Below the pieces are notes generated by a model. It did no database searches and had not been told where the DNA came from. It was given only the letters and a program-made list of their open reading frames with translations. Shown here piece by piece: positions 14,265-23,250 of a stretch of 31,354 bases of DNA (positions within the stretch are counted from its first letter, which is position 1; the number at the start of each line of letters is the position of its first letter). The position numbers and the translations under genes are program-made. Source of the stretch: Patescibacteria group bacterium UBA910 (lineage in GTDB: Bacteria; Patescibacteriota; Minisyncoccia; Phycocordibacterales; DATDWN01); contig DBEI01000037.1 of NCBI GenBank assembly GCA_002294445.1, positions 457-31,810 on the forward strand. Direction: 5' to 3'.

Positions 14265-15113
14265 ATGAACCTCAGCAAATTCAAGAAAACCATTTGGGAT
14301 TACTACAAAACACACGGGCGACACGATCTACCATGGAGGAAAACAAAAGATCCATACAAGATACTTGTATCAGAAATCATGCTTCAACAAACTCAAGTGC
14401 CCAGAGTAATAGAGAAATACAAAAGCTTCTTGAGAAAATTTCCAACAGTAGAATCTCTGACAAAAGCATCACTCAAAGATGTGCTCCTTGAGTGGCAGGG
14501 GCTCGGCTATAATCGCCGAGCGAAATACCTCAAACTCTGTGCGGAAAAAGTTGTTCACGAATACAACGGCAGGTTTCCTCAAACACACAAAGAACTTGTT
14601 GCACTTCCTGGCATCGGCCCCGCTACTGCAGGAGATATTCTCGCCTTTGCATACAATATTCCTGTACCTGTCATAGAAACAAACATCCGATCTGTCTTTA
14701 TTCATTTTTTCTTCCCTGCTTCGCTTCCTCCTTCGCTAAAGCTTCAAAGGACAAGCAAGCTACGCAGGACAAGCCCACTTATTAGCGATAAAGACATTCT
14801 GCCATTGATTGAAAAGGTATTGGATAAAAACAACCCAAGGGAATGGTACTGGGCACTTTTTGACTATGGTGCACACTTGAAGCAGACACGAAACCCAAAC
14901 ACACAGAGCACACATTACGTGAAGCAATCCCCTTTCAAAGGTTCAAACCGAGAAAAACGCTCGCATATTTTGAAACTCATTTTAACTGCACCAAAAAGTG
15001 AAAAAGAAATTGTTGAAACTCTGGGATATGAAAAAGATGTTGTGCAAAAAAACTTAGAGCAAATGATGAAAGAAGATTTAATTAAAAAAGAGAAAGGAAA
15101 ATTTTTTGTATAA
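14265..15113 (+). CDS. mutY: MutY-like A/G-specific adenine glycosylase (HhH-GPD), short Fe-S-less form, with an internal repeat-derived insertion
   Basis: Motifs LPWR, SEIMLQQTQV, WQGLGYNRRA and LPGIGPATA; only one Cys; no C-terminal NUDIX-like domain. Confidence 0.85.
   Translation: MNLSKFKKTIWDYYKTHGRHDLPWRKTKDPYKILVSEIMLQQTQVPRVIEKYKSFLRKFPTVESLTKASLKDVLLEWQGLGYNRRAKYLKLCAEKVVHEYNGRFPQTHKELVALPGIGPATAGDILAFAYNIPVPVIETNIRSVFIHFFFPASLPPSLKLQRTSKLRRTSPLISDKDILPLIEKVLDKNNPREWYWALFDYGAHLKQTRNPNTQSTHYVKQSPFKGSNREKRSHILKLILTAPKSEKEIVETLGYEKDVVQKNLEQMMKEDLIKKEKGKFFV
14716..14774 (+). repeat. In-frame copy of the tmRNA/GIY-YIG-linked repeat
   Basis: CTTCGCTAAAGCT (14731-14743) and AAGCTACGCAGGACAAGC (14757-14774) match CTTCGCTAAAGCTACGCAGTGCAAGC at 22855-22880. 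Confidence 0.75.
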
Positions 15114-22442: not shown

Positions 22443-22851
22443 GGGGGTGTCAGGTTTTGACATAGTCTGCATCCGTTCGCGCACTACAGAGTTCTAGTCA
22501 CTCTCAAAACAACTAGAAACCATACGTGTAAACAATACTGTTGCACGAGCAAAAGCTTCTGTTTCTCCATACTTTGGAGTAAACGACTTTGCTTTCTCTT
22601 ACGCACGAGCTTAATTTTAAGACTCGTCCCTAGGAGGGGGTGATACATCTGATATCTCATACGATGCCTCATTCATATAACCTTGAGATCCGGTCACTTC
22701 CCTGTTTCAGGATTTGACTCAAAAAATGAAACTCGCCTTTTTCTTGTTTTGTGTATTTTATAGAGAAAAAGTCTAAACGTTAAAATATTCTATGTAGTGT
22801 AGACCCGTTCGTATTCTCTCTATGCACGTGGTTTCGATACCACCATCTCCA
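22443..22851 (+). ncRNA. ssrA: tmRNA
   Basis: 5' GGGGGTG pairs with 3' CATCTCC (including G3-U70), discriminator A; T-arm GTGGT-TTCGAT-ACCAC; internal tag frame 22528-22614; adjacent to smpB. Confidence 0.9.
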
Positions 22852-22970
22852 CTGCTTCGCTAAAGCTACGCAGTGCAAGCACTAAATACCTTTAGCACAT
22901 CAAACTTCACTCAACACGTGAGGTTTTTTGTTAGCGAAGAAGTGGATCCTGTGTAGCCTTGGCGAAGCAG
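22852..22970. repeat. Inverted-repeat element preceding the GIY-YIG gene
   Basis: CTGCTTCGCTAAAGCTACGCAG (22852-22873) vs reverse complement of 22949-22970 (CTGCTTCGCCAAGGCTACACAG), 19/22; a partial third copy TTAGCGAAG at 22931-22939. Confidence 0.75.
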
Positions 22971-22988
22971 GATATATATAATAAATAT

Positions 22989-23228
22989 ATGCACTATGTC
23001 TATATTTTAAAGAGTCAAAAAGACAACAGCCTCTATATTGGCAGTACAGAAAATGTAAAAAATAGACTAAAGGAACATAACCGAGGCGAATCGACATATT
23101 CAAAAACTAAAAAACCATTTTCTTTAGTTTGGTTTTGTATATTTCCTAACAAACAAAAAGCTTTAGCTTTTGAAAAATATCTCAAACATGGTTCAGGACA
23201 CGCTTTTACAAAAAAGCATTTAATTTAA
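22989..23228 (+). CDS. Small stand-alone GIY-YIG nuclease
   Basis: MHYVYILKS...LYIGSTENVKNRLKEHN...ALAFEKYLK, 79 aa from the ATG at 22989. Confidence 0.9.
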   Translation: MHYVYILKSQKDNSLYIGSTENVKNRLKEHNRGESTYSKTKKPFSLVWFCIFPNKQKALAFEKYLKHGSGHAFTKKHLI

Positions 23229-23237
23229 GTCAAAGGG

Positions 23238-23250
23238 TCGATACCACCAT
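23238..23250 (+). repeat. Duplication of the tmRNA 3' end (att/TSD-like)
   Basis: TCGATACCACCAT is identical to 22834-22846 and continues into hairpin GATACCAC/GTGGTATC. Confidence 0.7.

Follow-up and report, generated by a model that had tools for sequence, protein, structure and literature searches.

The stretch of DNA analyzed here (the window) comprises 31,354 nucleotides of contig DBEI01000037.1 from Patescibacteria group bacterium UBA910 (assembly GCA_002294445.1); its source genome (G000) is a 585-kb metagenome-assembled genome (MAG) that is distributed over 68 contigs and is 82% complete. At positions 14265–15113 on the plus strand the window contains an intact gene for an adenine DNA glycosylase of 282 aa. 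Within this gene, at 14715–14774 (plus strand), lies a 60-nt composite hairpin element that is read in frame as residues P151–S170 (PASLPPSLKLQRTSKLRRTS) and is recognized from its ungapped matches elsewhere and from the alignment of orthologues. Related hairpins occur further along the window beside the genes for transfer-messenger RNA (tmRNA) and for a small GIY-YIG nuclease.

The host protein matches the Pfam family HhH-GPD (E 1e-16), with an additional HHH match. Its best solved relative is PDB 8uuc, ‘Adenine DNA glycosylase’ (E 3.5e-64, residues 20–265), and a second structural match is to the catalytic core of E. coli MutY (E 8e-37); the C-terminal domain is not of the NUDIX type and resembles a winged helix, with weak winged helix-turn-helix matches at residues 228–279. 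The translation contains a single cysteine, C92, which is located in the HhH-GPD core, and no cysteine occupies any of the four positions that provide the cluster ligands in canonical MutY. We sought orthologues in 60 related genomes, found a match in 23 of these (24 of 61 when G000 is included), and aligned 20 sequences, including that from G000; Q221 and R229, spaced eight residues apart, are invariant in this alignment, as are E37 and E138, and both the catalytic and the OG-recognition residues are conserved. The protein in 8uuc is MutYX, a clusterless adenine glycosylase in which the OG-recognition pair (Gln201/Arg209) also is spaced by eight residues; MutYX is defined by an HhH-GPD core, the lack of the Cys4 [4Fe-4S] motif, the Gln/Arg OG pair and a non-NUDIX C-terminal domain, and its helix H9 positions the catalytic carboxylate (PMC12631127). 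Every one of the defining features that we looked for is present in the host protein. Because the cluster cysteines are missing and because Q221/R229 are invariant at the spacing of the MutYX pair, the gene encodes an intact, clusterless MutYX-type glycosylase and not a canonical MutY; an earlier sequence-only reading of this DNA, which had named the host mutY, thus had the adenine glycosylase right but not the type. The codon for E138 (window 14676–14678) specifies Glu in all 20 aligned sequences, and the aligned residue in 8uuc also is Glu; we take this position to be that of the catalytic Asp in canonical MutY (Asp138, E. coli numbering).

The open reading frame (ORF) reads HFFFP-ASLPPSLKLQRTSKLRRTSPL-ISDKDIL, that is, a repeat lies in frame in an otherwise intact mutY-type gene whose reading frame is preserved, just as the sequence-only reading had claimed; the protein between HFFF and SDKDIL is PASLPPSLKLQRTSKLRRTSPLI. 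The insert of ~20 codons occupies the loop directly after helix H9. Orthologues had been expected to have a short linker at this site and the insert to be found in a surface loop, and both expectations are borne out. The linker has 6 residues (e.g., KNKDSV) in nine of the 13 orthologues from the same family, and 6 residues in 8uuc also, versus 23 residues in G000; 8uuc aligns to the host protein with a gap of 17 residues at the insert site. In an AlphaFold2 model built on the alignment (mean pLDDT 89.3), the only segment with a pLDDT below 50 consists of residues 155–169, within the insert; this sole low-confidence loop is located between two intact helices, 139–149, which corresponds to H9 of MutYX, and 175–185. 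The model thus predicts that the insert sits right behind a functionally important helix without disturbing it. Two congeners (G005 and G002) have short linkers at the insert site; in two others (G001 and G003), the insert at the same site is longer and of a different kind, and within it lies the inner unit described below in a decayed form. Contigs from three other runs (X2, from a different study of 2025, X3 and X4) span the insert with no differences, so the insert is not an assembly artefact; the runs were compared as contigs only, a comparison that rare insert-free variants could escape.

The 60 nt of the insert consist of two nested hairpin units, of which the inner one interrupts the loop of the outer one between its bases 6 and 7. 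On the left, the outer unit (14715–14725, plus strand) is composed of the stem CCTGC and the first six loop bases, TTCGCT; it is followed by a 31-nt inner unit (14726–14756, plus strand) with the stem TCCTCC, the loop TTCGCTAAAGCTTC, a decayed right stem, AAAGGA, and the tail CAAGC; the right half of the outer unit (14757–14774, plus strand) then supplies the remaining loop bases, AAGCTAC, the stem GCAGG(A) and a second CAAGC tail. With a profile of 142 copies, all from other genomes, nhmmer finds the inner unit in the 585-kb genome with E 6.2e-7, and the right outer half, which is identical in 16 of 18 positions to window 22863–22880, is a partial match with E 0.18. When the inner unit is removed, the outer halves equal a solo copy in another genome, G007 (L028; CCTGC-TTCGCTAAAGCTAC-GCAGGAC), except for one missing A. 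The matches that the sequence-only reading had described between the insert and the repeat next to the tmRNA gene (22852–22880) are reproduced: CTGCTTCGC in 9 of 9 positions, CTTCGCTAAAGCT in 13 of 13 and AAGCTACGCAGGACAAGC in 16 of 18. Its tandem duplication of AGGACAAGC is better described in another way, since the two copies are the right stem and tail of the two nested units, an arrangement that recurs in G057 and G007.

The composite as such is found at unrelated loci. The 63-nt stretch 14714–14776 aligns without gaps in two other genomes with scores of 48 and 38, versus a maximum of 19 in 200 shuffles. In G057, which belongs to another family of the order, the match (L025, minus strand, 1484–1540) is identical in 52 of 56 positions and is located between the genes for tmRNA and a GIY-YIG protein; in this copy the right stem of the inner unit is intact (GGAGGA, versus AAAGGA in the window). 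In G007, the match (L035, minus strand, 1483–1543; 49 of 60 positions identical) shares the reading frame of the window copy (TSLPTSLKLRRTRKLRRAS) and belongs to an ORF of 361 aa; by its translation, the N-terminus resembles a CxxC metal-binding site and the rest is hydrophobic, as in a membrane protein. This ORF has no orthologue in G000 and hence no empty site for comparison. The junction CAAGC|AAGCTAC is common to the composites of G000, G057 and G007. Because the same junctions occur at unrelated loci of two other genomes, the composite appears to have travelled intact, that is, to have moved as a whole. Further nested copies (L064 and L166) have different inner stems but the same break point in the loop, and removal of the inner unit restores the complete 14-nt loop; displaced-window controls for nested copies gave 0. 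That L064 and L166 share the interrupted position with the composite suggests a preference for insertion between bases 6 and 7 of the loop.

The unit spans ~31 nt: a stem of 6 bp encloses a conserved loop of 14 nt (TTCGCYRARGCTWC), in which one internal pair covaries, and CAAGC follows as a tail. The pattern CTTCGCYAARGCTWC has three matches in the window versus 0.18 expected, and none of 100 shuffles reaches three. Using a family pattern in which the loop, six free bases and the tail are specified and the stem is left free, we found 47 matches in 26 of the 401 genomes of the order; the reversed-pattern control gave 0. In a scan of 185,579 species, at least 120 loci with the unit were located in many phyla; the matches listed include Patescibacteria, Planctomycetota, Verrucomicrobiota, Acidobacteriota, Proteobacteria, Bacteroidota and others, and among these matches 112 of 124 copies have at least five of the six stem pairs. 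Across 152 distinct copies, stem positions 1–6 are 80–94% Watson-Crick, each with several types of pair, as compared with 15–18% for positions 7–8, and the loop pair Y6–R9 covaries (C-G 82, T-A 61, T-G 6 and C-A 3). A conserved loop on a freely varying stem looks like the signature of a folded single strand that is recognized by a protein.

The sequence-only reading had proposed a scan of the genome for other copies, and these exist both between and inside genes. G000 contains five or six, of which two loci are coding and the others non-coding; the profile of foreign copies retrieves a copy on contig C38 and its partial twin, the inner unit in the glycosylase gene, both copies on the tmRNA side, one in the gene for YchF, and the outer half in the glycosylase gene. 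In relatives, copies are found in the genes for PyrG, LeuRS, LigA, ArgRS, IleRS, UvrC, DinB and PheT. A short-word blastn search of the genome with the insert returned mostly noise. The best-preserved solo copy in G000 is that on C38 (2456–2487; L041), with the stem CCCTGC/GCAGGG; it adjoins a GC-rich, structured-looking stretch that runs off the end of the contig and beside which Rfam identifies no family. The partial twin (C50, 3731–3749) is located at another contig end.

Several copies within other protein-coding genes also are in-frame insertions. In PyrG of G019 and LeuRS of G051, exactly 10 extra codons relative to the G000 orthologues coincide with the unit, and a Dus-like protein of G024 has 19 extra codons relative to its G000 orthologue; among the order-wide matches listed, 17 of 31 copies are located in ORFs of at least 280 aa. 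Pfam assigned nine of ten host ORFs to ArgRS, SMC/RecN, DinB, LigA (twice), PheT, LeuRS, IleRS and UvrC, and left one without assignment. In G000 itself, YchF carries a second in-frame copy (C60, 3151–3172; L042/L073) of eight extra codons in the SSFEASAK region (TDSSFEASAKKDG); this copy contains the loop motif with a TCTTTC/GAAGGA stem, and the extra codons are missing from 11 orthologues, including those of five congeners. A RecJ-like match in G054 was set aside, since it lacks the form of a clean insertion and might be partial or due to chance. At least four reading frames of the element are in use, three forward and one reverse, with the products FAKASxxK, SLKLRRxS, LRQGFxGQA and LPxEALAKxG; because the unit is read in several frames and in both orientations, the entity that these genes share is the DNA and not the peptide.

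Non-coding copies often abut the ends of tRNA or tmRNA genes, with the stem formed in part from the last bases of the RNA gene, and the window contains such a copy. Rfam identifies a tmRNA gene at 22443–22854 (plus strand; RF00023, 61.9 bits, E 4.4e-22; ARAGORN missed it), and its 3′ end abuts a solo unit at 22850–22880 (plus strand; nhmmer E 8e-7) with the stem CACTGC/GCAGTG, the loop TTCGCTAAAGCTAC and the tail CAAGC; the stem includes the last bases of the tmRNA gene. A unit with the CACTGC stem also is located at tmRNA or tRNA ends in G020, G015, G279 and UBA926. On the other side of the spacer is an inverted unit (22947–22972, minus strand; nhmmer E 1.2e-3) with the stem TCCTGC/ACAGGA and the loop TTCGCCAAGGCTAC but no CAAGC tail; the equivalent position in G057 holds the composite form. 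The gene for the GIY-YIG nuclease (22989–23228, plus strand; Pfam PF01541, E 2.6e-20), a single-domain protein of 79 aa and a candidate mobiliser of the hairpins, follows; both units thus lie upstream of it, one on each side of the spacer that separates it from the tmRNA gene. No hairpin unit was found downstream of the GIY-YIG gene, only a 13-nt repeat of the tmRNA end. GIY-YIG homologues that are 66–84% identical adjoin the same hairpins in G057 (66%), G020 and G007. G000 is the only genome of the genus in which we found a close GIY-YIG homologue, and also the only one with exact motif copies; this amounts to a single contrast.

Two further features of these ends are recorded here. The 13-nt repeat is an exact direct repeat, TCGATACCACCAT, of the 3′ part of tmRNA (window 22834–22846 and 23238–23250; 0 expected by chance); its copies bracket the ~400-nt cassette of hairpins and nuclease in the manner of an att-type duplication, and the second copy also is part of a hairpin, GATACCAC...GTGGTATC. 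At six loci from other phyla (L107, L137, L141, L161, L175 and L188), the hairpin starts 3–4 nt past a tRNA whose CCA is encoded in the genome, and the stem, CCAGCC/GGCTGG, uses the CCA itself; at three of the six, a GIY-YIG gene is located 100–230 nt away. By these sequences, the home site at tRNA ends is conserved far beyond the Patescibacteria.

Short palindromes that are unrelated in sequence to the hairpin unit also occur in frame in the orthologous glycosylase genes. At the same H9 loop we observed CCCCGAGGG-TA-CCCTCGGGG in G002 (L005) and CAAGGAC-A-GTCCTTG in G006 (L007); in other loops, in-frame palindromes are found in G001 (CCCCTATGT-TGG-ACATAGGGG; L004) and G006 (TCGTCGC-CAGAA-GCGACGA), and an in-frame hairpin of ~48 nt in G017 (L011). 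The acquisition of in-frame palindromes appears to be a general habit of these genomes.

We consider it highly probable that the coding sequence of the MutYX-type glycosylase was invaded by a small, GC-rich, structured hairpin element and that the insert is one of its copies. The sequence-only reading had taken the repeat to be mobile, and the presence or absence of the insert among orthologues, together with near-identical copies at unrelated loci, argues for this. The insert would have been tolerated because it adds a multiple of three nucleotides, because the frame in which it is read has no stop, and because it landed in a tolerant loop; the peptide PASLPPSLKLQRTSKLRRTS would be a passenger without a function of its own, and the copy in the glycosylase gene, with its inner stem broken, looks like one that is decaying. 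The element could spread in the form of single-stranded DNA hairpins, cut and joined by an enzyme specific for them; the best candidate for this enzyme would be the 79-aa GIY-YIG nuclease encoded next to the hairpin copies behind the tmRNA gene.

The case for the GIY-YIG protein as the enzyme that moves the hairpins is one of analogy with the Ssn nucleases and their SRM/NTS hairpins. Ssn nucleases are 94-aa GIY-YIG proteins that are flanked by NTS/SRM hairpins and cut single-stranded DNA there (Chenal et al., 2025; PMC11893778); the window likewise has a tiny single-domain GIY-YIG gene with hairpin repeats beside it and further solo copies elsewhere, a layout like that of an insertion sequence (IS), and it is this layout and the Pfam GIY-YIG score by which the window nuclease resembles Ssn. 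In contrast with SRM/NTS, the loop of the unit is conserved while the stem is variable, and copies are counted in units instead of hundreds; the terms ‘in frame’, ‘open reading’ and ‘tRNA’ do not appear in the main text of the Ssn paper (PMC11893778). A broader proposal, which we offer tentatively and regard as possible but doubtful, is that the 31-nt hairpin is the complete mobile unit of a minimal, pan-bacterial ‘hairpin transposon’ that is driven in trans by GIY-YIG single-strand nucleases of 80 aa encoded at the 3′ ends of tRNA and tmRNA genes. In this view, the enzyme would always open the loop between bases 6 and 7, the site to which the nested copies point, and single-stranded DNA would be the target into which units are pasted; loops of existing copies and coding strands of essential genes would be among such targets.

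Several observations weigh against these interpretations. The fold of the glycosylase copy (z −0.3) and that of the coding copy in G007 (z +0.6) are no better than those of shuffles; because folding energies give no stable hairpin in these coding copies, the structural case rests on covariation across copies. The number of copies per genome is low (0–7), unlike the RPE, REP and NTS families discussed here and below, and the published SRM search pattern matches nowhere in the window and twice in the genome, as compared with 0–2 times in shuffled windows, so the unit is not assigned to the SRM. At the junctions in the glycosylase, LeuRS, PyrG and YchF genes we found neither a target-site duplication nor a clear target motif, and the DNA around the YchF copy is rewritten, with no exact junction, so that copy is not a clean insertion. 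The glycosylase gene tree leaves the branching within the genus open and does not distinguish one event from independent events in G000 and in G001/G003. Finally, just 5 of the 112 copies with good stems have a GIY-YIG gene within 600 nt, and in G019, which is 100% complete and carries the insert in PyrG, no GIY-YIG gene is detectable with the window nuclease as query.

The case of G019 is favorable to a different enzyme, a Y1 (HUH) transposase of the RAYT or IS200-IS605 kind, as the mobiliser of the hairpins in place of the GIY-YIG nuclease. REP hairpins have Y1 transposases as their established partners (PMC11893778, discussion), and a PF01797 (Y1_Tnp) protein that scores above the Pfam cut-off is encoded in each of the genomes G000, G019 and G051. 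The unit also shares with REP/REPIN sequences (RAYT, IS200/IS605) a short GC-rich hairpin, putative recognition as a single strand and spread without coding capacity of its own. However, G007 and G057, which carry the composite, have no PF01797 match, and on either side of the Y1 gene in G000 lies a palindrome of another kind, TGTCAAAGG(N2-3)CCTTTGACA, with none of the hairpins studied here nearby; REPs, moreover, are extragenic by definition and flank their RAYT. We judge this explanation to be unlikely and do not assign the unit to the REP/RAYT family. The Y1-like gene of G000 encodes 210 aa (C55, 6938–7567, minus strand) and, with its own palindrome, constitutes a RAYT/REP-like pair.

That the insert is retained because it is useful, either as a basic peptide loop that assists DNA binding or as a DNA or RNA hairpin that provides the gene with a site for recognition or regulation, is quite unlikely in our view. 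The peptide is indeed basic (five K/R) in a protein that binds DNA, the insert is identical in the contigs of the three other runs, and the covariation of the stems and the loop pair across the family implies that the hairpin is selected somewhere. Nonetheless, other hosts read the DNA in other frames or in the opposite orientation (FAKASxxK, LRQGFxGQA and xLPxEALAKxG), G005 and G002 have no insert while G001 and G003 hold only the decayed version, the inner stem is broken in a fold no better than that of shuffles, and the AlphaFold2 model predicts disorder. A local origin, by slippage, tandem duplication or palindrome-making template switching, with a coincidental resemblance to the repeat on the tmRNA side, could be entertained in view of the two copies of AGGACAAGC in the insert and of the H9 loop as a hotspot for unrelated palindromes in G002 and G006, with others elsewhere in the gene in G001, G006 and G017; we find it very improbable, given that the full 56–60 nt, junctions included, recur at unrelated loci of two other genomes, that a profile of foreign copies finds the insert at E 6e-7, and that shuffles score at most 19 versus the 48 observed. 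To a mis-assembly or chimera, for which the fragmented, incomplete MAG might speak, we give almost no credence, as independent contigs (X2, X3 and X4) cross the insert unchanged and the frame is intact.

The closest precedent for the behavior of the element is provided by the Rickettsia palindromic elements (RPEs; Ogata et al., 2000, as listed in PMC3184786). Like an RPE, the element is a dispersed palindromic repeat without a transposase inside it that is found both between genes and in frame within intact housekeeping genes, where it adds a peptide in a tolerated loop; dispersed intergenic and genic copies, and in-frame insertion with an intact ORF and fold, are thus features that the two share. 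Unlike the unit, RPEs are ~105–146 bp in length (PMC3184786), high-copy and restricted to Rickettsia; the unit is ~31 nt (60 nt for the composite), occurs in many phyla with 0–7 copies per genome, and has its home next to a GIY-YIG gene, at the ends of tRNA or tmRNA genes. The sequence-only reading had called the insert RPE-like, and in behavior it is; by its length and its host (Patescibacteria, not Rickettsia), and with its low copy number, it is not itself an RPE. Miniature inverted-repeat elements of the MITE class (e.g., Correia and Nezha) are small, non-autonomous elements that sometimes are fused in frame to ORFs (PMC3184786, PMC10969869), and the unit is similar in these respects; it is not assigned to the MITEs, as no terminal inverted repeats surround its core, no target-site duplication was seen, and its length is about one-third that of the smallest MITEs. 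In the searchable literature we found no description of such in-frame palindromic elements in the candidate phyla radiation/Patescibacteria.

These findings indicate that selfish hairpin DNA adds peptide loops to essential enzymes of ultra-small bacteria (a repair glycosylase, aminoacyl-tRNA synthetases, a ligase and CTP synthase), a type of in-frame insertion so far regarded as a textbook curiosity of Rickettsia. The nested anatomy of the composite, the fixed junction in the loop, the covariation statistics and the MutYX type of the host are set out here for the first time. The GIY-YIG family was recently shown to include site-specific single-strand DNA nucleases of biotechnological interest (PMC11893778), and the exact loop junction of the nested copies provides a concrete prediction of a cut site for the 79-aa nuclease. 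The elements also create spurious small ORFs and odd peptides (FAKASAGK, SLKLRRAS and LRQGFGGQA) in annotations across many phyla, and they are markers of recent insertion events in MAGs. If the hairpin transposon that we propose tentatively is real, its GIY-YIG enzymes would transpose DNA by a chemistry that has yet to be described for them, and it would be a general source from which proteins encoded in small genomes gain 10-residue loops.

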